Of a stretch of DNA of 64,000 nt, positions 6,207-63,945 are shown piece by piece; the first letter of the stretch is position 1; each line of letters starts with the position of its first letter. The translations under genes and the position numbers were made by a program. The stretch lies in IMG/VR virus record IMGVR_UViG_3300045988_187372. The stretch is one strand, 5' to 3'. Origin of the DNA: a virus. Under the pieces are notes generated by a model that was given only the letters and a program-made list of their open reading frames with translations, was not told the DNA's origin and made no database searches.

Positions 6207-7073
6207 CTATACTCTTAGCCAAAATATCTTTAATGCCATTTGAATTTCTTCAGGAGTAAATTCATTGTATTTACATATCAACAGAATATGTGCTGTAACA
6301 GGAACAATGTATAAATTTGTTTTCAGTTCCTCTGAAATATTTTTAAGCAAATTATTGTTCAGAATTGCACTTGTATTATAAAAGTCGATTACATTTTGAA
6401 TTACATATATTCCTTTAATACATTTGCTCTCAAACCCACCAGAATTACTTAGAAAAGATAATTCTTTCTTTGTCTTTTCATAATTATCATCATCTGCCAG
6501 TTGCGTCAAAAAATAATCACCTAATACACTGATAAAATATTTGTTGGAATATATTGAATGAATTGCAAGATTGTACAATTCGTTTTCATCAATTTTCAGT
6601 ATGTCCCTCATATAGTTATTATCAATTACAAACATTGTACCTTCTGAATTTTCTTTAGGTATGATCACATTATAAATTATTTCGAACTCATAAAATGGCC
6701 TATGAGGAATGCCGTTTAAATCTTCCATATTGTCCGGCTTTTGTATTAATTGAGGCATAATATAGTGTTTTATATCATTTGAATTAATTTCTGGAGCTAA
6801 ATTATTAAGTTTATATTCACTACCATTAGAATTTTTGTTTCTATAAAATGCTTCAGATATTGACAATGCAATTTCTTTTATTGACGAATTATTTAAATAT
6901 TGTTTATATAATTGATTTAATTTAAATTCTAAGGGACGCATAAACTGATTTTTAGAATGAAAAATAAGCTTATATGATGTGTAAACTATATCTGTTGGTG
7001 TAATATCTTCAATATTTTGAAGTAATTCGAATTTAAGATGTTTAAGAAAATCTTCGTAATTCATTTTTTGCAT
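6207..7073 (-). CDS. hypothetical protein
   Basis: 288-aa ORF; promoter motif 7108-7123. Confidence 0.55.
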   Translation of the reverse strand: MQKMNYEDFLKHLKFELLQNIEDITPTDIVYTSYKLIFHSKNQFMRPLEFKLNQLYKQYLNNSSIKEIALSISEAFYRNKNSNGSEYKLNNLAPEINSNDIKHYIMPQLIQKPDNMEDLNGIPHRPFYEFEIIYNVIIPKENSEGTMFVIDNNYMRDILKIDENELYNLAIHSIYSNKYFISVLGDYFLTQLADDDNYEKTKKELSFLSNSGGFESKCIKGIYVIQNVIDFYNTSAILNNNLLKNISEELKTNLYIVPVTAHILLICKYNEFTPEEIQMALKIFWLRV

Positions 7074-7107
7074 ATAATTAGTTCTCCTTTTATTTAGTTA
7101 TATTTTT

Positions 7108-7123
7108 AATATGACAGAAAAAA
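7108..7123 (-). promoter_or_regulatory. conserved promoter motif
   Basis: AATATGACAGAAAAAA upstream of 6207..7073. Confidence 0.6.
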
Positions 7124-7264
7124 TGAATTATTATTTTACATAAAATAATTGATGTGTATGAAAATAAGACAGTAACTAAATGTAAATGCCTTTTATTTAT
7201 TAAAATATCCCGTTTTTGTGTTTTTCTAAGCACTTTATTGGGTATACTATGCCTTCGCTTGTAA

Positions 7265-7530
7265 AAAATAATAACAATATATTGTACGTTTATTGTTATA
7301 TATTAGTTTAATATGTTAACTTTATTAACAATATATAGTTATTTAAGATTTATTAAAATATAGCTAAGATACAAAAATAATAACAATATATAGATATAAA
7401 ATATGATTTAATATACATTAAAATTAACATCATTATGTTATAGAATAGAAGAACTTGTGCAATAAAATTAACAATATATAGCTAAATATTTGATACATAA
7501 ATGTAATAATGATAACAATATGTAGTAATG
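7265..7530. repeat. iteron array, candidate origin of replication
   Basis: (A/T)TAACAATATATAG copies at ~7271, 7326, 7381 (55-bp spacing), 7469, 7513 plus TAATTGGG(T/A) repeats further right, inside a 1.28-kb gene-free region. Confidence 0.5.
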
Positions 7531-8352
7531 TATTATCCGTTGCATAGCCAATAAAATGCCTTATATGTGTCAGAATAATACCATGATGTAGTTATCATAT
7601 GCTGATTTAAGAGATAAAAAATGTTAATTTGATAACATATAATTGGTAATATTAGCAATTATATATGGATTAATTGGGTACAATAGACTGAATGATCAGT
7701 GAGAAAAATAAATATAACTGATTAATGGGATATAATTATTATTTACTAAAGTTAATTAATGGAATTACTGGAAACACATATAGGAATGATAGAGTAAAGG
7801 AAATAGATCTAAGAACAAATAAGAAAGAATTAGTGTATATGAATGCATCTATTGAGACAGAAATGGAATTATTGGGTTTACTAAGGCATTTGCAGGGCGA
7901 AGAATAGATTTACAGGAATCTAGTAATCATAATTTTTGTAATTATCATATATTATATATGAGGGAATTATATTATTTATTAGTGTATTAAAGGCATTAAT
8001 TGGGATAAATGAAGTGCTTGCTAGAGACAGGTAAGGAATTGCCAGGGAAATAAACACAAGATGTATTAAGCTGATAAATGATATTGTATAAGGATATAAC
8101 AATAATAGTTATACGCTTTTAATCCTTAATAATGTTCTGGCGGTTATTATATTAAGTCTTAAAACGCTATTAAGGAATAATCAAATGTATTATATAAGGC
8201 TCTAATTTTTATATTTTATTAATAAAAAGCGTATCAATGAAAAAGAAAATAATAGAAGGGCTTTGAAGAAGGTGTATGACATATTACACTTAAAGGAAGT
8301 GTAATCATAAAAAAATACAGCTACCTATTGATAACTGCATTTTATTTATATA

Positions 8353-9381
8353 TTACATAAAAGATTGTATACTATATCCTTTCCGTCTGAAACGAACTCT
8401 AATCTTTTTTATTGCTTTTGATTCAATCTGTCTGATTCGTTCTCTGGAAACATTCCATTCAGTACCTATATCTTTTAAAGTTTTAACCTTTGAACCATAT
8501 CCCATTCTACTCTTAATTACATATAATTCTCTAGGAGTGAGACAATCTTCAACTTCTTTCCAAAGCAGTTCATTCATTTCTTTTTGAATAATCGTATCTT
8601 CAACTTTAGGTTCAGGAGCTTCTATATAATCAGCCAAACACGAATCGTCATGGCCTTCGTCACTTTGAATAGGTGCATCTAATGAAACCAATTCATTAAA
8701 GCTCTGAATATGTACAAGCATTTCTTTAGTTAAAAGAGGATATCTTTGTTTTACTACATCATATAATTCATCAATTGTAGGTTTTCTTTGAAGTTTATTA
8801 GTTAAATCCACAAATGTAGTCTTAACAAAAGAATCCTGTTCTCTTACATGTACAGGGAATCTAACTAATAAATCATAATTGGCTAATTCTCTATATATAC
8901 TCTGTCTAATCCAATGAGTTGCATAAGTTGAAAATGCATATCCTAATTTATAATCAAACATTTGTATAGCTCTGTATAACCCGAAAATACCGGCCTGACA
9001 TAAATCATCCATTTCAAAACTTTGCGTTTTAGCTGTAACAGCTTTAGCAATACTGATGACTAAACGCATATTAGATAAAATCAATTTTTCAGTTATTTCT
9101 TTTTTCTTTTTAGGATGTTTTTTTATCTCTTCAAATAATTTAAGAGTTTCATCTTTGGATAAAACCGGATAATCAGCGAATGATTTAATATAATAAGTTA
9201 TATTATTTTCTAATAATAGTTTCTCTTTTTCATTTAAAATCTCTTTATCATTTAAAATATCGGTATAATTATCCTCTGATAAAATATTTATGTTTTCTAC
9301 TGATTTATTTGTGTCAAATAATTCATCAACATATTCATCTTTATTGTTTTTTTTATTTAATAATAAATTCTTATCTGCCAT
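8353..9381 (-). CDS. sigma-70 family RNA polymerase sigma factor
   Basis: Region 2 'DLCQAGIFGLYRAIQMFDYKLGYAFSTYATHWIRQSI' and region 4 HTH 'LKDIGTEWNVSRERIRQIESKAIKKIR'. Confidence 0.8.
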   Translation of the reverse strand: MADKNLLLNKKNNKDEYVDELFDTNKSVENINILSEDNYTDILNDKEILNEKEKLLLENNITYYIKSFADYPVLSKDETLKLFEEIKKHPKKKKEITEKLILSNMRLVISIAKAVTAKTQSFEMDDLCQAGIFGLYRAIQMFDYKLGYAFSTYATHWIRQSIYRELANYDLLVRFPVHVREQDSFVKTTFVDLTNKLQRKPTIDELYDVVKQRYPLLTKEMLVHIQSFNELVSLDAPIQSDEGHDDSCLADYIEAPEPKVEDTIIQKEMNELLWKEVEDCLTPRELYVIKSRMGYGSKVKTLKDIGTEWNVSRERIRQIESKAIKKIRVRFRRKGYSIQSFM

Positions 9382-10732: not shown

Positions 10733-10746
10733 ATATGACAGATACA
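10733..10746 (-). promoter_or_regulatory. conserved promoter motif
   Basis: ATATGACAGATACA upstream of 9793..10704. Confidence 0.55.
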
Positions 10747-10816: not shown

Positions 10817-12502
10817 TTAGCATTTGCGTACTATTGAAGGGGCTGACATATCAGGGTTAATGAATTTCTTACATAAATGTTCAATTCCAGTTGTTGAATC
10901 AAGCCAATATAAATAATCTCCATCAACGTCCACCAAATATTCATTAATAGAATCAAGAACATCGTTTACTTCGGAAACAGTACAAATAAATCTATATGAA
11001 GACTTATTTTTCTTTAAAGGTTTAACAGATTTAACAATAATCTGATATACAATTTCGTCATCTGAAGATCTAAAATCATCTACTTGAATTTTTCCTGATA
11101 AACATAATTTAGCATCATTAACAAGTAAGTCTCTAATATTTGCATAATCCTTAGAAAAACATACACCATTAATAGAACCTGTTTTATCTTCTACCTCAAA
11201 AGTTACCCATTCGTATCCATTTCTATCCTTTCTTACAACAAGATTTTTAATTATACCAGATACATCGTTAACTTCTGTTGAAATATCAGAAATGGGATCT
11301 GTATAAATATTATACTCATCAATTGGATGCCCTGTAATATAAACACCTAACACTTCTTTTTCATCATTTAGAATCTGACCTAAATCATCTTCTACATAAT
11401 CAATATCTATATTTTCAAGATCATCTTCTAAGCTTTCTATAACTGTCTTAGCTGAATTGATACGTTTAATTATGGAATCCTTAGTTGGCATCTTTTTTGA
11501 AGTAACTTGAAAGGAAATATTTTCTTCTGAAATTCTTTCCTTAAACTCATCAAGATCAATATAATCTTCCACAAATTCAATAACTTTACTTGCGTTTTCA
11601 ATAAACTTACTCTTTTCTCTGATTTTCTTGATTGTATCCTGAATTTCTTTCATACAAATCATATCTAATGATATCATTGTTCTTGTATAACCAAGGCAAT
11701 CGAAAGCACCTGCTTTAATTAAGGAACTTAATGCTTCTGCATTAATATTTGTTCGTTTGATAAAATCTTTAATATCAGAATATTCGCCATTAGCATTTCT
11801 ATCTTCAACAATTTTAGCTGCTTCTGCTCCAACATTCTTAATATTACTCAGACCATATAAAATATTTCCATCTACAACATCACAATGTAAATTTGAAGCA
11901 TTAATGTCCGGGGGCAATACCTTTACTCCAAAATCAAGAGCATCACTAATATCATCAGCGACTTCATCAATTTTATCAGTATGATTTATTACATTTGTAA
12001 GATAATAAGCCGGATAATAATACTTAAGAAAAGCAGTCCAATATGATGTAACAGCATAAGCAGTGGCATGTGACTTATTAAACGCATACTTAGCAAAGTC
12101 AACCATTGCATCCCAAATCTTATGAGCTATAACTTCTGGAATTCCATTTGCAATACAACCTGGTACTAATGCTTCATTTTCTTTTTTAGTATCAGCATTA
12201 CCATATACAAAAGTGTGTCTTTCAGCATCAATCTCATCCTGATGTTTTTTTGACATAGCTCTACGGACTAAATCAGAACGCCCCCATGTATATCCTGCTA
12301 AATCACGAACAATCTGCATTACCTGTTCCTGATAAACTATCTGTCCATAAGTAGTTGACAAAATTGGCTCTAATTGAGGACATAAATATTTAATCTTAGA
12401 TGCATCCTTTTTACCTTCTATGAAATCAGGTATAAACTTTTCAGGACCAGGACGATATAAAGCATTCATTGCTATTAAATCTTCAATACCTGTTTTATTC
12501 AT
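10817..12502 (-). CDS. dnaE: DNA polymerase III alpha subunit, C-terminal fragment (fingers/HhH/OB)
   Basis: begins ...DLIAMNALYRPGPEKFIPDFIEGKK, then RRAMSKKHQDEI, FNKSHATAYAVTSYWTAFLKYYYPAYY, HhH GLSNIKNVGAEAAKIV; own promoter motif 12538-12553 and terminator 10773-10795. Confidence 0.85.
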   Translation of the reverse strand: MNKTGIEDLIAMNALYRPGPEKFIPDFIEGKKDASKIKYLCPQLEPILSTTYGQIVYQEQVMQIVRDLAGYTWGRSDLVRRAMSKKHQDEIDAERHTFVYGNADTKKENEALVPGCIANGIPEVIAHKIWDAMVDFAKYAFNKSHATAYAVTSYWTAFLKYYYPAYYLTNVINHTDKIDEVADDISDALDFGVKVLPPDINASNLHCDVVDGNILYGLSNIKNVGAEAAKIVEDRNANGEYSDIKDFIKRTNINAEALSSLIKAGAFDCLGYTRTMISLDMICMKEIQDTIKKIREKSKFIENASKVIEFVEDYIDLDEFKERISEENISFQVTSKKMPTKDSIIKRINSAKTVIESLEDDLENIDIDYVEDDLGQILNDEKEVLGVYITGHPIDEYNIYTDPISDISTEVNDVSGIIKNLVVRKDRNGYEWVTFEVEDKTGSINGVCFSKDYANIRDLLVNDAKLCLSGKIQVDDFRSSDDEIVYQIIVKSVKPLKKNKSSYRFICTVSEVNDVLDSINEYLVDVDGDYLYWLDSTTGIEHLCKKFINPDMSAPSIVRKC

Positions 12503-18221: not shown

Positions 18222-20771
18222 CTATGAACATAACTTCTTAAGGTTATTCCTCATACCGGCTGACTCAAACTGGAAAACATTCTTAGTTCTTCCTTTTGCA
18301 TATACTTCTTTGTATACCTTATCAGCTTTAGGACCCTCTAATGGAATATTCATTACATCAATTACTTCTCCTGTATCTCTCTGAATCATTCTGAGTGTGT
18401 CGGTAATAATTGTAAGAGTTTTTAATCCAAGAAAATCCATTTTTAATAATCCATTAGCTTCGCACTGAATCATATCCATTTCTGTAGTTTTAATTCCCTT
18501 TTTTCCATCTCTAATAGGAATATAATCAGTAACATCATTACTATCATAAATAATAACACCTGCGGCATGTTGTCCGTATGTCGTAAGCATACCTTCACAA
18601 TGAGCTGCAATATTAAGAATAGAAATAGCATCTGGATTACTATTATATTCATCCTTTAAGAAATCTAACAAAGAAATGCTGTCCTGAATATTAATGCCTA
18701 ATTCATCAACCTTATTAGTATCTTTCATGCCAACAATATCTTCAAAATTAGTTGCTTTAGCAGGCACTTTCTTACGAATCTGATCTCCTAAAGATAAGAA
18801 TTTCTTTTCATCATCATAAGCTTTCTTTCCATAATATCTTGCAGCATCTCTGATAGCACCTTTAGCCTGCTGTCTTGATTCTGTAATAATTCCAACAACA
18901 GCTTCACTACCATATTTAGCTCTTACATACTCAATTGTCTTTTCTCTTACTCCAAGAGCAAGATCACTATCGATATCAGGCATACTTACTCTTTCTGGAT
19001 TTAAGAATCGTTCAAAAATCAGATTATACTTAAATGGATCAATTCCGGTAATACCAAGTAAATATGTAACCAATGAACCGGCACCTGAACCTCTTCCAAT
19101 GCCTATTCCAATTCCGGTATTATAATTGTGAGCCTTAACATACTCTTTTGCACCTTCAATTGTTAAAGGTACTTCTGATAGTTTATCCATAGGTACTAAT
19201 CCACAAATTCTTCCATATTCCAGGAAGTCCTTTACAATTAAATGATAATCGGCAAAGCCCATCTGAATGATAATATTAAGTTCGTATTCCATTCGTTTCT
19301 GATGTTCTTCATCCCATCCTTTTCCGTTAGGATATCTCCAATTAATTCCCTTAATTGCTTCAGATCTTAATAATTCGTTTGAGTCCTTGTTCTTATCAAA
19401 TACTGGATAATGATTAGATTTTTCTGGAATATAAGCACATCTTTTTCCAATTACATTTAAGTTATTGAGTGCTTCTGCAACCTGATCATCTGTTAATATA
19501 GCTGATAAGGCCTGAGCAAGTTCGTAAGGTGTTTTTACATATAACTCTTTATCTGATTCCGACTCACTTATCTTAATAAATCTTAAAAATTTAGCTACAT
19601 TACGCATATCAATACTTCTATCAGAATTATCTGCCATATGTGCATCATTAGCAGCAACTAATGGGATATTATGCTTCCTTGCTAACTGAGCTAACACAGG
19701 ATATGTTCTGCTTTCCATTTCAAGCCCATGATTCTGAACTTCAATGTAATAATTACCTGCTCCAAAAATTTCCTGATAAAAAAGCATTGTCTTTTCTGCT
19801 TCAGACATTAATTCTATTGGGCTTTTCTTTAATGATTCATAATGCTGTATCTTATTTTCATGATTAATATATTCCTCTACTTTAAGACTTATATCCTTTA
19901 ACTCGGCTTTCTTAGCATTAACTAATTTTCTGACATTAGGAATTTTATCTTTAGCTTCCAGAATTTTATTATTTATCTCCTCATATTCGTTAATCAGTTT
20001 AATAAGCTCTGGATCATCATCATTTAAACACTTTCTTGCATCTCTTAATTTTCTTGAAATCTGTGTTCTTTCTGATTTAAGTTCCTTGGAATCACGAATA
20101 TTAATCAATTCATCTAAATCTGCCGATACCCTTTCAAATTCATCTTTAGCTGAAAGATATTCTTTATCATCAGGACTTATACAATCACGTATAACTAGCT
20201 CGTCTTTTTCAGTAGTATGCTGCTGTGCTTTTCTTTCTCTGTTAATCATTTTATCCAAAACATCATCTGATAATAATTGCAGAGCTGGTGCACCCGAAAC
20301 GCAAGCTGAAGTTGCTATTATATCACCGTTAAAGTTATATTTCTTTAAATCTGATATTGTAATAACAGGCTTTCCCATTCTTTTTTCAGAAGCCTTAGAA
20401 TTTAACTTATCAATAATATGCTTGCCTCTTTCTGAAGTGGCTAACATAATAATATGGCCAATCTGTTCATTTATCTTAAATGGTGGCACTTCAATATAAG
20501 CCTCTACGCCATAAATGATATTAAATGGATGTTCCTCAGTACTTATTTTCTTAGCGTAATCAATACATGTTTGCATTGCTGAAAATGATGCATGGTCCGT
20601 AACAGCAAATTTAGTATATCCTGCATTAAATGCAGCATCTAAATAACTTTTAGGTTCATCTACGGCATCAAACAAAGAGCCTCCTGGATGGTTATGTTCA
20701 CACACTGTAACTCCTGATTCAATAACCTTTTTTGTTAATTCTCCAATTTTTACATGTTCAAACATTGACAT
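18222..20771 (-). CDS. dnaE: DNA polymerase III alpha subunit, N-terminal fragment (PHP + palm)
   Basis: AVTDHASFSAMQ (PHP), YIEVQNHGLEME...PLVAANDAHM, PDIDSDLAL, KMDFLGLKTLTII, ends QFESAGMRNNLKKLCS* exactly where the C-fragment gene resumes; promoter 20805-20820. Confidence 0.9.
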   Translation of the reverse strand: MSMFEHVKIGELTKKVIESGVTVCEHNHPGGSLFDAVDEPKSYLDAAFNAGYTKFAVTDHASFSAMQTCIDYAKKISTEEHPFNIIYGVEAYIEVPPFKINEQIGHIIMLATSERGKHIIDKLNSKASEKRMGKPVITISDLKKYNFNGDIIATSACVSGAPALQLLSDDVLDKMINRERKAQQHTTEKDELVIRDCISPDDKEYLSAKDEFERVSADLDELINIRDSKELKSERTQISRKLRDARKCLNDDDPELIKLINEYEEINNKILEAKDKIPNVRKLVNAKKAELKDISLKVEEYINHENKIQHYESLKKSPIELMSEAEKTMLFYQEIFGAGNYYIEVQNHGLEMESRTYPVLAQLARKHNIPLVAANDAHMADNSDRSIDMRNVAKFLRFIKISESESDKELYVKTPYELAQALSAILTDDQVAEALNNLNVIGKRCAYIPEKSNHYPVFDKNKDSNELLRSEAIKGINWRYPNGKGWDEEHQKRMEYELNIIIQMGFADYHLIVKDFLEYGRICGLVPMDKLSEVPLTIEGAKEYVKAHNYNTGIGIGIGRGSGAGSLVTYLLGITGIDPFKYNLIFERFLNPERVSMPDIDSDLALGVREKTIEYVRAKYGSEAVVGIITESRQQAKGAIRDAARYYGKKAYDDEKKFLSLGDQIRKKVPAKATNFEDIVGMKDTNKVDELGINIQDSISLLDFLKDEYNSNPDAISILNIAAHCEGMLTTYGQHAAGVIIYDSNDVTDYIPIRDGKKGIKTTEMDMIQCEANGLLKMDFLGLKTLTIITDTLRMIQRDTGEVIDVMNIPLEGPKADKVYKEVYAKGRTKNVFQFESAGMRNNLKKLCS

Positions 20772-22071: not shown

Positions 22072-22086
22072 ATATGACAGAAAAAT
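22072..22086 (-). promoter_or_regulatory. conserved promoter motif
   Basis: ATATGACAGAAAAAT upstream of 20883..22034. Confidence 0.6.
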
Positions 22087-42211: not shown

Positions 42212-42598
42212 TCATAAATAGAAAAACAACCCTGAATAATAATACTTAGGAAGTTTATCTATCTCTTTACAAATTTGAATAATTCTTTCATCCACTAAAA
42301 AAGAATATTGTTTTACTCTTCTTACATCAGATTTAAAATAATGTACATCATTTATAAATCCTATAAGAAAAGTAAAGAATATAACATAAGACAAAATACT
42401 TATTATACTTAATATAATATGTATTAAACCTGTAGTTAATAAATTCAAATTTGTAAAAATAGAAATTAACAAAGTTACACATAACTTTGTCTGCTGCATA
42501 GCTGTATATTTTTCAATATCACGCCAATAAGTTGTATAACCTGCAGCAACAGAGTTATATTTCTTTAAGAAAAAATGATTTAATATATTTTTATTCAT
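42212..42598 (-). CDS. membrane protein
   Basis: 128 aa with TM helices. Confidence 0.5.
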   Translation of the reverse strand: MNKNILNHFFLKKYNSVAAGYTTYWRDIEKYTAMQQTKLCVTLLISIFTNLNLLTTGLIHIILSIISILSYVIFFTFLIGFINDVHYFKSDVRRVKQYSFLVDERIIQICKEIDKLPKYYYSGLFFYL

Positions 42599-42642
42599 TA
42601 TTTCTTCTCCTTTATTAATTATATTCTGATAGATATATGACA

Positions 42643-42658
42643 GAAAAATTAATAGGAG
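42643..42658 (-). promoter_or_regulatory. conserved promoter motif
   Basis: ATATATGACAGAAAAA upstream of 42212..42598. Confidence 0.6.
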
Positions 42659-43004
42659 TATGTATATAATTTTTATTCCCTTATTACAATAAATGATAAA
42701 GTAATTTTTAGACTTAATTTAATTAATATGAAAATATCAAATTTATTAATAATAGAGTATGGAGTTTTACTATAATTTTTATAAAATTACATTTTAGAAA
42801 ACAAATAATTACTAAAATATAAATCAGCTTATTAATAGATTAATTTGTATATCAAAAATATTCAAAAATATAATTCTGGGTGCTGTTGATATTTTTAAAA
42901 TTCATAAAAATAATATATGAAATGATTCATTTGCTTTTAGGGTAACTTTAATAAGAATACCGTGTATACGCTATTCAAAATCCTAAAATATTGAAATTAT
43001 TTTT

Positions 43005-44771
43005 TTATAAATCAAATACTAGCCTGTAATTTGCATTAAGAGCAATACTTACGTCATTATGACTTAAGCTATGTTTATTCATAAATCCGCAGGCATCAAG
43101 TTTAAAGATGATATCGTCAACATCATCTTTCCATAGTCCCCATTTTTTATCCTGATAATATATTTTTTCAAATAAATTAAAAAAGCTTGAATTTAAAATA
43201 AATTCCTTTATTTTCTTTTTAAGTATTCTATATTTGTTTGCATATTTTTTTATTGTATCTAACTTTTCTTTATATTTTTTTACAAGCTTTTGTTTGTCTA
43301 CTATGGGATTCCTCCGTGTAGCGCTAACAATTTTTCTTTTATTAACCTCTTTGATATTATTTTTTATCTGTTCAAGTCTGTCAGCATCTTCAGTAAGCTT
43401 TCGTGAAATTACATTTGAAGATACATGCAATTCTTTCATTATTTCCTTATATGTTTTACCCATTGCATATAATTCTACAATTTTATTATATTTAAATTCT
43501 CTTCGTTTTTTGTTTCTTTCTACCTGTTCTTTTTTCTTTAACTTTTCTTCCATTCTATAGCCTTCAAGATTTTTAAGGCCATATTCTCTTCTTGCTGTAA
43601 GTGGATCCAATCCTAACCCTTTTATGAAGGTCGTTGTTTTAAATTTACACCAATTCACATTATTAACATTATTAAAATCTTTGAATGTAAATAATTCTAA
43701 TTCATCAATTGATAATGGCTCTGAAGTTTTATTTGTTAGCTTCAGCATTTCCTTTTTGGCAGTTTCATCATCATATGCTGCTCTTAAAGTATTATATGCG
43801 TAATAGGCAAAATCTAATTTATCAACATACTTAGGAACAGCATCCTTAGCAAAATTATTAAGGAATTCTATTCTGTTTATTAAATTATCCTGTAAATATG
43901 AAGGAAGATTTAATTTATTGCTGTTTTTGCTGTCTGAATCTTCATAGTTTACAATATCATGCAATCTATCATTATTCTTTATAAAATATAAAGGATGTAA
44001 TGTGTTATATAAATCATGTACAGTTGTTTTATTCTTATTAATAAATAATAATGTTGGAGTCTCAAAATTTATTGCATCATAAGTTCCAGGTACACGAATT
44101 AAAGAGTCACATTTTACTGACTCTTTGTCTACTTCAGGGAAACCTAATGAAATTCCATTCATGTCTATTTGTTTATTTATAACCTGTGACAATACCTTTC
44201 CTACCAGATTATATTTCCACAAGAGATCCTTTGATAATTCTTCAATGCCATATATTAATTCAACTTCATTATATATAGCGTTAATAATATTAGGCTTTGG
44301 GGCATCTCCTAAAATACAATCATAGTTATTGAGGAAATATTGAATATTGTCTTTATAATCTTCTTCTGGCCATATTATTCTTACACATATAGCTTTTAGA
44401 CAGAATATATTTTTTTCACACCTAGCCATTCGCTTTTGTATTCTACTATGTGGTGTCTTACCAGTACTATACCCTGAAGTAGAAAAACCTATTTCAATTT
44501 TGTCGTAGAATTCTTTATCTGAAACAACAGATGTCTTTAATGGGTTAATGCACATATATCTATTATATTCTTCGTTCAAATAATCCTTATTGAGATTAGA
44601 AAGCACATCTTCTGCATTAGACCTAAAAACTGCTGTCTTAGATGAATCATTAACATTTAATGCAACAAATTGATAATGGCATTGATACTGCTTATTCTCT
44701 TGTTCTGTTATAAATTTAATAGCTCTCTTCTCATTTTTATCTGCACAATTTAAAAATTTTTGTTTTGTCAT
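43005..44771 (-). CDS. replication protein with PriCT-like motif and C-terminal HTH (putative)
   Basis: likely start MTKQKFLN at 44771 (promoter motif 44805-44820 sits inside the longer GTG-started track ORF); LIRVPGTYDAINFE resembles PriCT RvPGt.N motif; HTH YAMGKTYKEIMKELHVSSNVISRKL. Confidence 0.45.
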   Translation of the reverse strand: MTKQKFLNCADKNEKRAIKFITEQENKQYQCHYQFVALNVNDSSKTAVFRSNAEDVLSNLNKDYLNEEYNRYMCINPLKTSVVSDKEFYDKIEIGFSTSGYSTGKTPHSRIQKRMARCEKNIFCLKAICVRIIWPEEDYKDNIQYFLNNYDCILGDAPKPNIINAIYNEVELIYGIEELSKDLLWKYNLVGKVLSQVINKQIDMNGISLGFPEVDKESVKCDSLIRVPGTYDAINFETPTLLFINKNKTTVHDLYNTLHPLYFIKNNDRLHDIVNYEDSDSKNSNKLNLPSYLQDNLINRIEFLNNFAKDAVPKYVDKLDFAYYAYNTLRAAYDDETAKKEMLKLTNKTSEPLSIDELELFTFKDFNNVNNVNWCKFKTTTFIKGLGLDPLTARREYGLKNLEGYRMEEKLKKKEQVERNKKRREFKYNKIVELYAMGKTYKEIMKELHVSSNVISRKLTEDADRLEQIKNNIKEVNKRKIVSATRRNPIVDKQKLVKKYKEKLDTIKKYANKYRILKKKIKEFILNSSFFNLFEKIYYQDKKWGLWKDDVDDIIFKLDACGFMNKHSLSHNDVSIALNANYRLVFDL

Positions 44772-44804
44772 AAATAACCTCGCTATGAAAATCTTATATA
44801 TATC

Positions 44805-44820
44805 TTTATGACAGACAAAA
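44805..44820 (-). promoter_or_regulatory. conserved promoter motif
   Basis: TTTATGACAGACAAAA upstream of start 44771. Confidence 0.5.
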
Positions 44821-44882
44821 AAATTTTTTTTCTTACACAAAAAAAATAGTGCCATTTCTGACACTATTAAAACTTGGATATA

Positions 44883-48435: not shown

Positions 48436-49755
48436 TTAATGAGTAATAATATTAGATAATGCAGTCATAATTTCTTCATTATTTTCTATTATTTGGTTTT
48501 TATCAAAGCCAATTATATACTGAACATAAAAATTATAAAGTACATCATAACTGATTTTGTAATCTAAAATTGACTTATCATTAATAACAGGGGCAAAATT
48601 ATATTCTATGCATAATTGCAATGACTTTAAATTTGCATATTTACCTTTAATAGCCTTTGAAATATCATTAATCCATAAAACATTATGTCCTGCTTCAAAT
48701 TGATTCATACGCAAAGCTGTATATTCAATTTGGAATAATGACTTCTGTTCTTCAGCGGTAAATAATTTTTCAGGCTCAGCATATAATTTTTTAATATTTA
48801 TAATATTATTTGACATAAATTCAAGAATATTACAAATAATTCCACTACCAGTTATTGCTGTTACATTATCAATAGACGATGCTAAAATAGCGTGTTCTTT
48901 TAATTTTCCCTCTGGAATATCAATTAAAAGATTATTTGCTACAGAATTCATTTCTTTTGTTAATGTTTTCTTTATCTGTTTAATAATTTTTGCTTCAAAA
49001 TATGTCGCTTTTATCATACTAAGTTCCTTAATATGATATTTTTCATATAATTCCACACCTAATATTTTTTGTAAATTATGTTTTGCTTCTATATCAGGGA
49101 CAATAATGGTTTTGTTTTCATCAGTCTTTATATATAAAGAATATCTGAACACAGAAAAAGGGATACTTTTTATTGAACCGTAATTTTTATATATATTTAT
49201 TCTTTCATTTAAAAAATTTGTTATATTATTTAATTCATCTTCTGTAAGATTTGATTTTTTCTCATTAACACTATAATGAGCTAAGAAATCTCTTATTGTA
49301 TTTCCTCCATAAATTTCAGTGCCGTTATGATTTTTTATGACATTACCGGCATTAATAATTTTGTCAGGAGTCATAAAATAATTTAAATCTAATCCTTTTA
49401 ATTTAAATACCAAACCCTTATAAATCATTCCATAAGCTAAATCGGCTAATTCGATAATAGAGCGTGTAGGTAAATTTTCAATATTTAATTTAACAACATC
49501 ATCATATTTAAATAAATTAATGAGTGCATTCTTTTTTGCATTATATCCATTTTGTAAATTATAAATATGTAATGGTGATAATTCTAATATATGCCTGCCG
49601 CACATATATCCATACATTGTTTTATAAAAAATATCACATTTGTTATAATCATATTTAAATGCTTTTAAAATTTCTTTAGGATATTTCCTATTTGCTCTTT
49701 TTTTTACATTATTGTTTTTATTACTATTTTCCTTAAATTCAACTTTTGTTATCAT
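48436..49755 (-). CDS. hypothetical protein
   Basis: 439-aa ORF; promoter 49815-49830. Confidence 0.55.
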   Translation of the reverse strand: MITKVEFKENSNKNNNVKKRANRKYPKEILKAFKYDYNKCDIFYKTMYGYMCGRHILELSPLHIYNLQNGYNAKKNALINLFKYDDVVKLNIENLPTRSIIELADLAYGMIYKGLVFKLKGLDLNYFMTPDKIINAGNVIKNHNGTEIYGGNTIRDFLAHYSVNEKKSNLTEDELNNITNFLNERINIYKNYGSIKSIPFSVFRYSLYIKTDENKTIIVPDIEAKHNLQKILGVELYEKYHIKELSMIKATYFEAKIIKQIKKTLTKEMNSVANNLLIDIPEGKLKEHAILASSIDNVTAITGSGIICNILEFMSNNIINIKKLYAEPEKLFTAEEQKSLFQIEYTALRMNQFEAGHNVLWINDISKAIKGKYANLKSLQLCIEYNFAPVINDKSILDYKISYDVLYNFYVQYIIGFDKNQIIENNEEIMTALSNIITH

Positions 49756-61763: not shown

Positions 61764-62633
61764 TTACATATCAAAGTTTCTGGTTATTCTTGCCGTTCTA
61801 AGGATAATGTCCTTTGTATTCTGATCAAGATTTTCTGCATTAATAATAACTGCTGTCTTATCATTGCTAAGCTTCATTTCTGGAGTAATCTTAGCATACA
61901 TTAATGTGGCTTCAAGACCGCCTATAACTGTATCTGCATTTTTATTAGCAGAAATCTTTAATACCATTTCAGAATCATCTGAACTATCATTAGGTGTTAC
62001 TGGAACCGAGGATTCTGATTCTGATGATTCTTCTACTGGGTCAACATTTACTGCGTCTGATACATCAGTATTTGAATTATTGTAAACAGCTTCAGATACA
62101 TCTTCATTTTCACTTGAAACTAATTCATCATCGACCTGTTCATTATATTCTGGGACCTCTGTAATAACTGCTGTACTTTCTGATACCTGTGAATCATTAT
62201 TTGCTTCTTCATTAATAGGTTCATTAATGGTATCAACAATAGTGTCAGCAACAGAATCATTAGAAGTATCATCCTGATTCCAAGGCAATTCCTTTTCATC
62301 TAAAACTGGTTCTTCAACCATTTCAGTTATTTCTGATTCAGCAATTTTAGAAGAAATTTCTTCTTTTTCTGCATTAATATCTTCAAGTGTTGGGGCGATT
62401 TCCTTTGCAACAACAGGAGCTTCTACATCTAAAACTGACTCCTTTGTATTTGCTCCAACATTATTAATTAATAATGCTGCCATTAGATTCTTTATTTCTT
62501 CAATTTTTGTATTTGGAATAACAATATGTACTCCATTGCCCTCTTCAAAAAGGCTTATTGTCTGCATATTCATACTATATATGCTCCTTTCATTTTTTAT
62601 TACTAAATAATGTATGACAGAAAAAAAAATCAA
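61764..62633 (-). CDS. acidic, low-complexity (D/E/S/V-rich) protein
   Basis: 289 aa; promoter 62612-62630. Confidence 0.55.
   Translation of the reverse strand: MIFFSVIHYLVIKNERSIYSMNMQTISLFEEGNGVHIVIPNTKIEEIKNLMAALLINNVGANTKESVLDVEAPVVAKEIAPTLEDINAEKEEISSKIAESEITEMVEEPVLDEKELPWNQDDTSNDSVADTIVDTINEPINEEANNDSQVSESTAVITEVPEYNEQVDDELVSSENEDVSEAVYNNSNTDVSDAVNVDPVEESSESESSVPVTPNDSSDDSEMVLKISANKNADTVIGGLEATLMYAKITPEMKLSNDKTAVIINAENLDQNTKDIILRTARITRNFDM
62612..62630 (-). promoter_or_regulatory. conserved promoter motif
   Basis: GTATGACAGAAAAAAAAAT upstream of 61764..62633. Confidence 0.55.
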
Positions 62634-62665: not shown

Positions 62666-62685
62666 TAAGTGTATATATACACTTT
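62666..62685. promoter_or_regulatory. perfect 20-bp palindrome between divergent promoters (candidate operator)
   Basis: TAAGTGTATATATACACTTA located between minus motif 62612-62630 and plus motif 62692-62706. Confidence 0.45.
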
Positions 62686-62691
62686 ATTATT

Positions 62692-62706
62692 TTTTCTGTC
62701 ATATCT
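62692..62706 (+). promoter_or_regulatory. conserved promoter motif in + orientation
   Basis: TTTTTCTGTCATATC ~35 nt upstream of relaxase start 62740. Confidence 0.55.
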
Positions 62707-62739: not shown

Positions 62740-63945
62740 ATGTCAGATAAATCTTATACAATTTGCAAAATCATGAAATTAAATTCACTAAATGCTAATG
62801 GCAGATATAGTGTTAGATCTGCAGGCGAACATAATTTAAGGGAGTATGTACCATATAATTGTGATTCTGAAAAACAAAATTTAAATAAAGATATTGTTGA
62901 ACTTCCTAAAATGCTTAATGGAAGCCATTACTCCTATCAGACTGTTGTAAAAAATGCAATTAAAGAAATTCAAGATAATGGTACAATGGGAAAAGTTCGT
63001 CCTGATGCAGTTTATGCATTTGAAATTTGTCTAGGTTTTAATCCGGCAGATGGAAAGGACTGGAAAGATATTATTTCAGAAAAAGACCTAGATAAATGGT
63101 GTCAGGAAAATAAAAAATGGCTTGAAGAGCGTTTTGGTAAAAACAATTTAAAGCATTTAGTATTACATATGGATGAATCAACTCCTCATTTACATGCTTT
63201 AATTGTTCCTATTAATAATAAAGGTAGGTTAAGTGCTAAATCATTTATTAATGGCCCGACTGATTTATCAAAATTGCAGACTGAATATGCCAAGAAAGTA
63301 GGCTTACAATTTGGGTTGTCAAGAGGTGTTTCTAAAAAAGAAATAAGAGCTTCTAAAGAATTGGAAAATAAATTATATCCTAACTATTCTGATATGTCTA
63401 AATTCAAAAAAGCCACTCTTGGTAAAATAAAGGATGAAAGTGAAATAATAAAGGTTAACCCGAAAGAATTAGATAGTAATGGGCATATTTTGCCATCTTA
63501 CGAAGAAAGAGTGTTAGGTGAATTTCAGAATGTAAAATATCATTATTTAACTTTAGAAAATTCATTACGCCAGGAATTAAAAGAAGAACTAAAGCAAGAA
63601 ATAAAAAAAGTAGATACAGACTTTGAAAGGATTGCACTTGAAAAAGAAGAATTTGAAAAAGAAAAAAAGAAAAAAGATGCAGAGTTAAAACAAAAAGAAG
63701 AGGAACTTATTTCAAAAGAACATGAGTTACAGAAGCTATTAGGTGTATTAGAAAGTACAAAAAAATCAATCAGGGAAATCAAAAAAGATTATACATATTT
63801 TGAAACATTAAATCGTGCCCTTAAGCATGAATCTAATAAGGATATTGCTAAAGATTTATATAAACAGTTAAATAAGTTAGTTGAAGAACAGCATAAAAGA
63901 GATAAAGAAAATATTCATGCAATTAAACAATTTGATATAAGATAA
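62740..63945 (+). CDS. MobV-family relaxase (plasmid recombination enzyme Pre/Mob)
   Basis: LVLHMDESTPHLHALIVPI = HxDE...PHxH motif III; N-terminal ...NLRE; C-terminal coiled coil; + strand promoter motif 62692-62706; terminator hairpin 63946-63985. Confidence 0.75.
   Translation: MSDKSYTICKIMKLNSLNANGRYSVRSAGEHNLREYVPYNCDSEKQNLNKDIVELPKMLNGSHYSYQTVVKNAIKEIQDNGTMGKVRPDAVYAFEICLGFNPADGKDWKDIISEKDLDKWCQENKKWLEERFGKNNLKHLVLHMDESTPHLHALIVPINNKGRLSAKSFINGPTDLSKLQTEYAKKVGLQFGLSRGVSKKEIRASKELENKLYPNYSDMSKFKKATLGKIKDESEIIKVNPKELDSNGHILPSYEERVLGEFQNVKYHYLTLENSLRQELKEELKQEIKKVDTDFERIALEKEEFEKEKKKKDAELKQKEEELISKEHELQKLLGVLESTKKSIREIKKDYTYFETLNRALKHESNKDIAKDLYKQLNKLVEEQHKRDKENIHAIKQFDIR

Follow-up and report, generated by a model that had tools for sequence, protein, structure and literature searches.

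This analysis concerns a stretch of 64,000 nucleotides of DNA (the window), in which two genes on the minus strand are separated by a gap of 1.28 kb. An earlier note had proposed this gap, from its regularly spaced repeats, as a candidate replication origin. The question raised by the locus is whether the gap is an origin at all and, if so, of which process. The comparisons presented here suggest that the gap is probably an origin of transfer and not one of replication. The more specific interpretation, that the gap represents an extended MOBV-type oriT (relaxosome) module displaced from the relaxase gene, has in our estimation slightly better than an even chance of being correct.

The window belongs to a conjugative megaplasmid of 28% GC from gut Lachnospiraceae, and related contigs reach up to 389 kb. 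It is not a phage; its genes include those of a MobV relaxase and of a type IV coupling protein. The relaxase gene (Table 1) matches Mob_Pre in Pfam with E = 3.9e-30, and the homologues of its product in PLSDB carry the annotation 'MobV family relaxase', with an identity of only about 29-32%. The gene of the coupling protein (TraG/VirD4) is located about 1.6 kb past the relaxase gene, and on the presence of these two genes the element is classed as conjugative. A scan of species genomes for Mob gave only distant relatives, with identities of 40% or less over most of the protein. The 'Hodor' megaplasmids were considered as members of the same family and rejected, their GC content being 45-47%.

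The gap adjoins the end of a block of replication genes (split DnaE, 5'-3' exonuclease, UvrD, primase Zn-finger, RecA and RecJ). Its neighbours are a DUF5688 gene (6207-7073) and a sigma-factor gene with its stop at 8353. Both are on the minus strand, and therefore the gap is located downstream of the sigma-factor gene, beyond its stop and terminator, and upstream of the DUF5688 gene; it had been described as lying immediately upstream of the sigma-factor gene. The gap is indeed free of genes, as was claimed: no open reading frame in it is conserved at the protein level across six lineages in tblastx comparisons. The two 60-residue reading frames inside it, which had already been doubted, are not genes, and in the one at 7725-7907 the substitutions found in 98%-identical relatives appear by hand count to be mostly non-synonymous.

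Table 1. Positions of the features of the gap and of the relaxase locus in the window.
Feature	Position	Strand	Remarks
Promoter-like element of DUF5688 operon	7109..7143	-	TTATGTAAA (7135-7143), 17 nt, CTGTCATAT (7109-7117); about 45 nt upstream of ATG at 7073
Six-site dyad array	7272..7648	+	TAACA starts at 7272, 7326, 7381, 7469, 7513, 7633; spacings 54/55/88/44/120 bp
Non-coding 'complex' spacer	7650..8260	+	Purine-/G-rich on + strand, opposite to flanking genes; carries TAATTGGG-type motifs
Outlying seventh dyad, TAACAATAATAGTTA	8097..8111	+	Inside spacer
Three-arm inverted repeat	8269..8305	-	IR1 overlaps IR2
Intrinsic terminator of sigma-factor gene	8312..8343	-	Upstream boundary of module
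Perfect palindrome, AAGTGTATATATACACTT	62667..62684		About 56 nt upstream of Mob_Pre start
MobV-family relaxase gene	62740..63945	+	Pfam PF01076; presumed enzyme for gap module 54 kb away

The extreme AT richness ascribed to the gap holds for positions 7261-7560 (17.3% GC), but this is only the joint second-lowest 300-bp segment; the lowest, 42571-42870 with 14.3% GC, is outside the gap. The repeated element TAATTGGG(T/A) does occur there, with five of its 41 matches in the window (one mismatch or less), all on the plus strand; the enrichment is purely local, and the element is not over-represented window-wide. The other element noted as repeated, TTATCATAT, is weak, with two of 14 window copies in the gap. 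Megablast and blastn searches with the region gave no matches in collections of phages and plasmids, a tRNA scan found nothing, and a tandem-repeat finder returned nothing relevant. An Rfam search with gathering and E-value thresholds gave only a chance snoRNA match (E = 0.35), and the fold z-scores for a structured RNA in the spacer were only -1.7 and -2.1. At the DUF5688 end, the box CTGTCATAT of the promoter-like element is found in 31 copies in the window against 0.64 expected; 28 of these are on the minus strand, most of them just upstream of a ribosome-binding site. Sites found by a generic sigma-70 promoter scan were no more numerous than in shuffles.

The five repeat copies from which the locus was recognized are real. 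The sequence (A/T)TAACAATATATAG is found in three exact copies (7325, 7380 and 7468) and in two copies with one mismatch (7271, ending in TTG, and 7512, ending in GTAG), all on the plus strand. There is no other match with one mismatch or less in the 64 kb; the expected number is 0.8, and none of 100 shuffles reaches five. Four of the five starts given earlier were off by one, and the first three copies, said to be at exactly 55-bp intervals, are separated by 54 and 55 bp in a full series of 54/55/88/44. An extra dyad copy, TAACATATAATTGGTA, is located at 7633-7648, 120 bp beyond the fifth. The sites are dyads of 15-16 bp, copy 1 containing the perfect palindrome ACAATATATTGT, and within the gap the array occupies the part richest in AT (17% GC).

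This array architecture is found in eight lineages, in which the sequence of the site is specific to each lineage. The earlier proposal that the sites are about whole helical turns apart stands: 28 of the 40 neighbour spacings in the eight lineages deviate by no more than 1 bp from a multiple of 11, which supports a location on one helical face. The general description of the region as a non-coding, cis-acting array of phased repeats is also upheld, and the array is predicted to bind a protein. Several more specific identities of the dyads were rejected. The consensus of NrdR boxes is resembled by copy 1 only and not by the relatives. Polar Ter sites are excluded by the symmetry of the sites, which in one lineage (L026) occur in both orientations. 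No recombinase is found nearby, as attP arm sites or res sites would require. Finally, the dyads are not a general promoter motif, since they are limited to this locus and the promoter of the family is a different motif.

The other end of the gap contains an inverted repeat with three arms. IR1, ATTACACTT-ccttt-AAGTGTAAT (8283-8305), overlaps IR2, AAGTGTA-ATATGTCA-TACACcTT (8269-8291). The two have a common middle arm and therefore form mutually exclusive hairpins, while the outer arms contain the direct repeat TACACTT. This layout is exact in six of the eight lineages and imperfect in two. As single-stranded DNA the minus strand folds with z = -4.4. In the alignment of the hairpins 91% of cells pair, with compensatory changes at three pairs. 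The covariation score of 0.327 compares with 0.103 for shuffles, and none of 500 shuffles reaches it. All three arms vary jointly between lineages (TACACTT, TACGGA, TACC, TACAG), and the loop is kept at 8-9 nt with G/T. The G/T is present in the loop in all eight lineages (TATG/TCATAC, CATAG/TTTAC and others), a resemblance to the MOBV nick sequence only. In the window the nick is predicted between G8280 and T8279 of the minus strand. The pattern AGTGTA-N2-10-TACAC, with an expectation of 0.13, occurs in the window only in this hairpin and just upstream of Mob. The Mob-proximal palindrome shares its arms with the gap hairpin, but it has neither the loop with its GpT nor the third arm, and it is likely a remnant or an operator.

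Terminator, three-arm repeat, a spacer of 400-800 bp that is pyrimidine-rich on the gene-sense strand, and four to eight dyads recur as a unit in eight lineages, despite differing flanking genes and unconserved spacer sequence. The genes downstream of the module differ in every lineage. At least two sister lineages have the complete module directly upstream of the Mob_Pre gene. In L037, with a Mob 55% identical to that of the window, it is flanked by the homologue of window gene 61764-62633 on one side and by Mob on the other, and its array consists of six copies of TATAACAATATATAGTTA at a spacing of 65-66 bp, with motif and strand as in the window. The plus strand of 8269-8291, which reads AAGGTGTATGACATATTACACTT, is identical in 23 of 23 positions to the L037 sequence about 80-100 nt upstream of Mob. 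Two blocks of the spacer, read by eye, are also common to the window and L037: GCTTGyTAGAGACAGG, which is recovered by automatic alignment, and TTAAGTCTTAAAACGCTATT, which reads TTAGACCTTAAAACCGCTATT in L037.

Three further lineages, L035, L036 and L057 (Mob 52% identical), have the layout of L037 with a site of their own, TAyCACTTATATGGTAT, and with AAGTGTATGACTTATTACACTT as the hairpin. In L054 (Mob 57%) the hairpin is about 84-100 nt upstream of Mob. Lineage L122, with a Mob of about 37% identity, has 13 repeats and a three-arm repeat with the loop GCGTG/TA, and the L066 group (Mob 34%) has 24 copies of ATATTGTCCCTTT upstream of Mob in both orientations, mostly paired as palindromes. The position upstream of Mob is found in L035, L036, L037, L054 and L057. 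In the window the site is 54 kb away, and L005, L022, L024, L025 and L026 likewise have the module in this Mob-distant position, with covarying arms.

The arrangement of these features allows us to propose how the module may act. Read on the minus strand, it would begin with a MOBV-type nick region of two overlapping inverted repeats, with the GpT carried by the conserved 8-nt loop ATATG/TCA and TACACTT held by the outer arms. We infer that the MobV relaxase would recognize the hairpin and nick it at the GpT. From there transfer would run leftwards, with the spacer, the dyad array and the block of the DUF5688 gene as the first DNA to reach the recipient. The dyads, six to seven of them on one helix face, may bind a dimeric accessory protein that wraps the DNA and confers plasmid specificity. 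No accessory DNA-binding protein was identified among the candidates examined. The proteins downstream of the array and the partners of ParA gave no informative Pfam match, and PDB sequence searches with the DUF5688 protein, a 439-aa protein and a 619-aa protein gave nothing. A 300-aa protein 'X', conserved upstream of the gap in relatives, was rejected as the dyad binder since it is absent from the window; its N-terminal hydrophobic stretch also looks by eye like a membrane anchor.

The closest comparison is with pMV158, the MOBV1 prototype with the relaxase MobM. Its oriT contains three overlapping inverted repeats whose hairpins exclude one another; a direct repeat is present in IR1-L and IR2-R, and the GpT nick falls in TGTG/TTATAC. 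MOBV oriTs lie directly upstream of the relaxase gene, where they overlap its promoter (PMC5863519). The window and its relatives are similar in having a MobV/Mob_Pre relaxase, overlapping repeats with a common middle arm, an outer-arm direct repeat, a GpT within the second repeat's loop (TATG/TCATAC against TGTG/TTATAC) and, in sister lineages, a site beside the mob promoter. However, the pMV158 oriT has 41-43 nt and no accessory sites, whereas the window has a hairpin, a spacer of about 600 bp and six to seven phased dyads. An oriT of 1.2 kb far exceeds that of pMV158, where MobM acts without an accessory protein, and the array may therefore serve another function and merely travel beside the oriT. 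The transfer reading is also weakened by the strand of the pMV158-like sequence, which is opposite to the coding strand of Mob, unlike pMV158, by the distance of 54 kb to the relaxase gene, and by the palindrome that Mob keeps, which could be the real oriT.

The oriT2 of the Enterococcus plasmids pAD1 and pAM373, reportedly described by Francia and Clewell in 2002, is said to have a nick-site inverted repeat beside short periodic plasmid-specific repeats thought to give specificity. These are likewise large Firmicute conjugative plasmids with an inverted repeat next to periodic plasmid-specific repeats. However, their relaxase is TraX and not MobV, and their repeats are short direct ones near the inverted repeat, while the 16-bp dyads here are 44-121 bp apart and about 0.6 kb away. 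Two oriTs are cited for pAD1 (PMC5587640). The oriT of IncA/C plasmids, upstream of mobI, is AT-rich, with multiple inverted repeats and 14-bp direct repeats that overlap a transfer-gene promoter (PMC5587640). It resembles the gap in its AT richness and multiple inverted repeats, but it is about 150 bp long, the relaxase of its Gram-negative system is a different one, and a long phased array is lacking. The module is not a new kind of system, and its transfer function, as judged from sequence, is putative.

The proposal of a replication origin was correct in recognizing a cis-acting phased array, but the assignment to replication is not favoured, and we consider an iteron-type oriV unlikely. 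In such an origin the phased dyads would be recognized by a plasmid initiator, which would open the adjacent AT-rich DNA and recruit the plasmid's own helicase, primase and Pol III, with the hairpin as a single-strand initiation site. OriV and oriT are often neighbours. The 17% GC, the phasing at 11 bp and the position of the gap at the end of the replication-gene block would fit this function; in L026 a further dyad is found some 100 bp upstream of a Rep_3 gene and links the dyads to replication, and the Rep_3 gene of L025 has no obvious iterons beside it. Large non-coding oriV regions are known in other gut megaplasmids, among them the 'Hodor' plasmids of gut Bacillota (45-47% GC), which were mistaken for huge phages and whose oriV was predicted from the adjacency of Rep_3 (PMC12934698). 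The Hodor oriV resembles the gap as a sizeable stretch of AT-rich non-coding DNA with repeats. However, no initiator gene adjoins the repeats here. Related plasmids carry Rep_3 initiators. In the window and the 10 kb on its left, tblastn with the Rep_3 of relatives gave no match and no ParA homologue was found; on its right, Pfam gave no Rep_3 or ParA match among the genes called in the next 10 kb. A leftward walk of 10 kb on IMG/VR contigs met no Rep or ParA, and an alignment scan of IMG/VR with Rep_3 gave only an unrelated contig. For the protein at 43005-44864, suggested earlier as a PriCT-domain candidate, Pfam gave no such domain. No DnaA box with one mismatch or less is present in 7074-8352. 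The GC skew, which in cumulative form had been proposed as a check, is negative on both sides, and the cumulative curve falls steadily without inflection, a result that is uninformative if replication is unidirectional. In the Rep_3-bearing lineages L024, L026 and L029 distinct repeats are found beside Rep_3 and the module is elsewhere. The sites of the module are dyads 44-121 bp apart, and not the contiguous direct repeats of about 20 bp, or the tandem one-orientation repeats of about 17-22 bp, of the Rep_3 class. Finally, in sister lineages the module tracks the Mob gene.

A partition centromere of the sopC type appears somewhat less probable still. In F, sopC consists of 12 units of 43 bp, each with a 16-bp dyad, and dimers of a ParB- or ParR-like protein on 16-bp dyads every four to six helical turns would form the segregation complex. 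The architecture is similar, with a single array at each locus examined, and the sites differ between lineages and are alike within an element, as would be expected for incompatibility determinants; the relatives also encode ParA with a small partner protein. However, sopC has identical tandem repeats right after sopAB, whereas the window has spacings of 44-121 bp, an attached hairpin and no adjoining par operon. The par operon of relatives is 4-6 kb away, the regions upstream of parA in L024 and L025 have short repeats of their own (TATTGTAT and ATACAAT), no ParA homologue was found in the sequence examined around the window, and the array is always coupled to a hairpin of relaxase type. That the module is a displaced oriT copy which no longer works, the active oriT being the palindrome next to Mob, is improbable in our view. 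The 54 kb between module and Mob, which are adjacent in L035 and L037, and the perfect 18-bp palindrome with matching arms retained beside the Mob promoter would be explained by it. However, this palindrome has no GpT loop and no third arm, and five other lineages keep a Mob-distant module with covarying arms. The identity of the hairpin (23 of 23) and of the iteron with L037, despite a diverged spacer and a Mob of only 55% identity, argues for ongoing selection. The least probable of these alternatives is transcriptional control, with the dyads as operators through which a repressor would act on the operon downstream, or with a plus-strand non-coding RNA encoded by the spacer, or both. The array is 150-540 bp upstream of the DUF5688 promoter element, the spacer has the purine skew of a plus-strand transcript, and there is a resemblance between the loop of the hairpin, TGTCATAC, and the promoter box of the family, TGTCATAT. 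Nevertheless, six to eight operators over 300-400 bp would be unusual, the RNA searches gave no Rfam match and weak fold z-scores, the spacer is conserved only in the two blocks common with L037, and no downstream gene is constant between lineages.

If the transfer-origin reading is correct, it would provide a testable oriT for uncharacterised conjugative plasmids of about 150-390 kb and 28% GC from human-gut Lachnospiraceae, which are filed as viruses in public databases, and it would define the genes that enter the recipient first. The design would be unusual in joining a pMV158-like nick hairpin to a long array of plasmid-specific dyads phased at 11 bp, and among gut Firmicutes it is met again upstream of the genes of distant MobV relaxases. 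It could aid the prediction of transfer origins and mobility, and genetic tools for gut bacteria that are hard to manipulate. An extended version, tentative and rather doubtful, is that the module forms a mobile, self-contained 'entry cassette' of an undescribed family of low-GC gut megaplasmids. The MOBV nick hairpin would be combined in it with a phased dyad array of kilobase scale, and this array would also act on the strand that comes in, for example in priming or complementary-strand synthesis, in starting replication or in segregation. Within plasmids the cassette would have been relocated, so that in this lineage transfer would start 54 kb from the relaxase gene and different lineage-specific genes would become the leading region.

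The hairpin runs into a T-run in five of the eight lineages, and with these T-runs a weak role as a terminator is possible.

The gene-free gap lies between genes for a DUF5688 protein and a sigma-70-family factor (see the table), both on the minus strand, and thus 3' of the sigma gene and its terminator and 5' of the DUF5688 gene. This is the reverse of the orientation in an earlier note, which had put the gap upstream of the sigma-factor gene. The five motif copies described there, (A/T)TAACAATATATAG, are present, all on the plus strand, and no other copy with up to one mismatch is found in 64 kb (0.8 expected; at least five copies in 0 of 100 shuffles). Their intervals are 54, 55, 88 and 44 bp, and not exactly 55 bp between the first three. 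Two more copies are listed in the table. The repeat sites are dyads, and copy 1 contains the perfect palindrome ACAATATATTGT. The other repeats of the earlier note fared unequally: TAATTGGG-type motifs are locally enriched in the gap (5 of 41 window hits), whereas TTATCATAT is weak (2 of 14). The array has 17% GC, joint second-lowest among the 300-bp windows. The gap contains no conserved ORF, in agreement with the suggestion that its 60-aa ORFs are probably not genes. The array and gap are a real, conserved and non-random feature.

The sigma protein and the C-terminal DnaE protein served to recruit graded relatives. Those of 98% identity keep every iteron and are little informative. Five more lineages (L005, L022, L024, L025 and L026) have a gene-free gap of 0.95-1.36 kb at the same place, and they share with the window one order of parts in the gene sense: terminator of the upstream gene, three-arm inverted repeat, spacer, dyad array and a short stretch to the next gene. 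The spacer (400-800 bp) has a pyrimidine-rich gene-sense strand and shows no sequence conservation; the AT-rich array holds 4-8 dyads. The dyads have the common form TAcCA-N5-6-TGkTA, and the sequence differs lineage by lineage: CTATATATTGTTA in the window, ATTATATTGTTATA in L005, TACCAwwATATTGTTA in L022, TACCAnATTATTGGTA in L024, TACCAAyATAATGGTA in L025 and TACyATTATAwTrGTA, in both orientations, in L026. Within each locus they are found only in the array, with the sole exception of one extra site 5' of rep3 in L026. This single copy, TACCAATATAGTGGTA (19256-19271), is located some 100 bp 5' of the Rep_3 gene and hints at cross-talk of the putative dyad-binding protein with replication.

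Of the 40 distances between neighbouring dyads in eight lineages, 28 fall within 1 bp of an 11-bp multiple (27% expected; binomial P = 2e-8, an upper bound on significance, as duplication may have copied distances within an array). The same distances give no such signal at periods of 10, 10.5, 11.5 or 12. The multiples used vary among lineages (44, 55, 66, 88 and 121).

The middle arm of the inverted repeat can pair with the upstream or the downstream copy of its complement in all eight lineages, exactly in six. The downstream loop has 8 nt (9 in L026) and contains G/T in all eight; the loops are ATATG/TCA, GTATG/TCA, ATAAG/TCA, ACATAG/TT, ACATAG/TA and GCATTG/TAT. Compensatory changes occur in three of seven stem pairs, 91% of the cells pair, and the observed covariation score was reached in 0 of 500 shuffles. 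The single-stranded fold of the minus strand has z = -4.4 at the hairpin. The same hairpin design is reported for the transfer origin (oriT) of pMV158: its three repeats overlap, its hairpins are mutually exclusive, IR1-L and IR2-R contain a direct repeat, and the nick lies at the GpT of TGTG/TTATAC (PMC5863519). The nick predicted for the window by this analogy would bring the array and the DUF5688 block first into the recipient.

Arms of the type AGTGTA...TACAC occur in the window only in the hairpin and in a perfect palindrome (0.13 expected), which sits about 56 nt upstream of Mob, the MobV-family (Mob_Pre) relaxase gene. In other lineages with Mob homologues, the whole module of array, spacer and hairpin is directly upstream of the relaxase gene. 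The order in L037 (Mob 55% identical) is a homologue of the window gene adjoining the palindrome, array, spacer, hairpin with third arm, promoter and Mob. Its array consists of six copies of TATAACAATATATAGTTA spaced 65-66 bp apart, its purine-rich spacer has two blocks in common with the window as judged by eye, and its hairpin AAGGTGTATGACATATTACACTT, followed by the third arm, is identical to that of the window at 23 of 23 positions. The L035, L036 and L057 lineages (Mob 52%) have the same layout with their own dyad; their hairpin differs from the window's at two positions (one substitution and one single-base indel) and from that of L005 by one substitution. The hairpin is also present in L054 (Mob 57%). 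Ahead of Mob in L122 (about 37%; 509-1589) there are 13 copies of TATATGATACTAAAT and a three-arm repeat with the loop GCGTG/TA, while the L066 group (L064-L070; 34%) has 24 copies of the 13-mer ATATTGTCCCTTT 5' of Mob (L066, 636-1451), in both orientations and mostly as palindrome pairs. The relaxase genes of L122 and the L066 group, distant MobV genes on other gut contigs, are thus preceded by long arrays too, and array-plus-relaxase may be a general design. In the window lineage, the shortened palindrome alone is left upstream of Mob and the full module is 54 kb off.

The gene adjoining the palindrome encodes a very acidic product (pI 4.05, 21% Asp+Glu), which may be a DNA-mimic or anti-restriction protein. 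Its L037 homologue is the first gene past the oriT-like module.

Window DNA has 28% GC, and nearly all genes between 79 and 59740 are on the minus strand. They include a split DnaE, a 5'-3' exonuclease, two UvrD helicases, a primase zinc-finger protein, RecA, RecJ and a methylase. Contigs of the element are filed as viral in IMG/VR (3300045988_182851 and 3300029581_000240); L031, L050 and L056 were considered together with them. Despite this listing it is a conjugative megaplasmid, because it encodes a MobV relaxase, a TraG/VirD4 coupling protein gene lies just past the window edge, and contigs with the same Mob gene measure 190-389 kb. No phage structural genes were seen among the proteins scanned. 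A near-identical DnaE fragment carries the name of a Lachnospira pectinoschiza MAG. Identity with any of the published 'Hodor' megaplasmids was rejected, their GC content being 45-47%.

We lean, with slightly better than even confidence, to the module being an extended MOBV-type oriT whose dyad array would bind a putative accessory protein. In published oriTs, inverted repeats are commonly found together with direct ones, in AT-rich DNA close to relaxosome genes; some plasmids are known to carry two oriTs (PMC5587640). The main weaknesses of this reading are the distance of the module from Mob in the window and the dyad at the rep3 promoter in L026; that the module is a non-functional relic seems quite improbable. 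The L026 dyad is also a point in favour of a vegetative replication origin, which is unlikely: the gap has no DnaA box, and the GC skew is negative on both sides of it. No Rep_3 or ParA homologue was found in the window or in the 10 kb left of it, and the genes called in the 10 kb on its right side have no Pfam hit to either.

Both proteins are present in L024, L025, L026 and L029, but different repeats adjoin rep in three of these: about 13 copies of a 20-mer in L024, AAATAACCTTTAAAA in L026 and, directly upstream of Rep_3 in L029 (11611-13122), a long, partly N-masked tandem array of 33-bp iterons CAGTCTCAAAGTGTCCACGTCAAGAAGCA. The last, in a distant relative, is a classic iteron origin. The parA upstream regions of L024 and L025 have their own short repeats. 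Since the rep and par loci carry other repeats, those plasmids have, judged from sequence, a third cis-acting locus in the dyad array, separate from these two. A sopC-like centromere is less likely than a replication origin, and a transcriptional control region or ncRNA is the least probable alternative. The gap has no tRNA or Rfam match. The replication-origin label of the earlier note is probably wrong, and origin of transfer is the better fit.

Coordinates of features in the window
Feature	Position	Strand	Remark
DUF5688 protein gene	6207-7073	minus	
Gene-free gap	7074-8352		
(A/T)TAACAATATATAG, exact	7325, 7380, 7468	plus	
(A/T)TAACAATATATAG, one mismatch	7271, 7512	plus	
Further motif copies	7633-7648, 8097-8111		first is TAACATATAATTGGTA
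Hairpin	8269-8291		arms 8272-8290
Predicted nick	G8280/T8279	minus	by analogy with pMV158
Sigma gene terminator	8343-8312		
Sigma-70-family factor gene	8353-9381	minus	
DnaE-type Pol III alpha genes	10817-12502, 18222-20771	minus	
Lowest-GC 300-bp stretch	42571-42870		14.3%; around intergenic 42599-43004
Supposed PriCT-domain protein	43005-44864	minus	
439-aa protein	48436-49755	minus	
Acidic protein gene	61764-62633	minus	likely start 62573
Perfect palindrome	62667-62684		
Mob	62740-63945		
CTGTCATAT, examples	7109-7117, 10733-10741, 22072-22080, 62696-62704		

The motif CTGTCATAT occurs 31 times in the window (0.64 expected), 28 times on the minus strand. Most minus-strand copies are 25-45 nt 5' of a ribosome-binding site, and the usual form is TTTTTCTGTCATAT; TTATGTAAA is found about 17 nt upstream in a subset, and the core TGTCATAT also occurs in most related plasmids examined. 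The motif is probably a promoter peculiar to this plasmid family, and the sigma factor that the plasmid encodes possibly reads it.

The protein previously described as having a PriCT domain gave no significant Pfam or PDB match, only a weak one to HTH_28 (E = 0.04). A ParM/Alp-type segregation protein is one possibility for the 439-aa protein, which had no match in a PDB sequence search and a faint one to an ASKHA (actin-like fold) domain (E = 0.004). The two DnaE genes are separated by about 5.7 kb that holds other genes. In L005 (2606-6116) a further split divides the N-terminal part, and an HNH endonuclease gene sits at that split.
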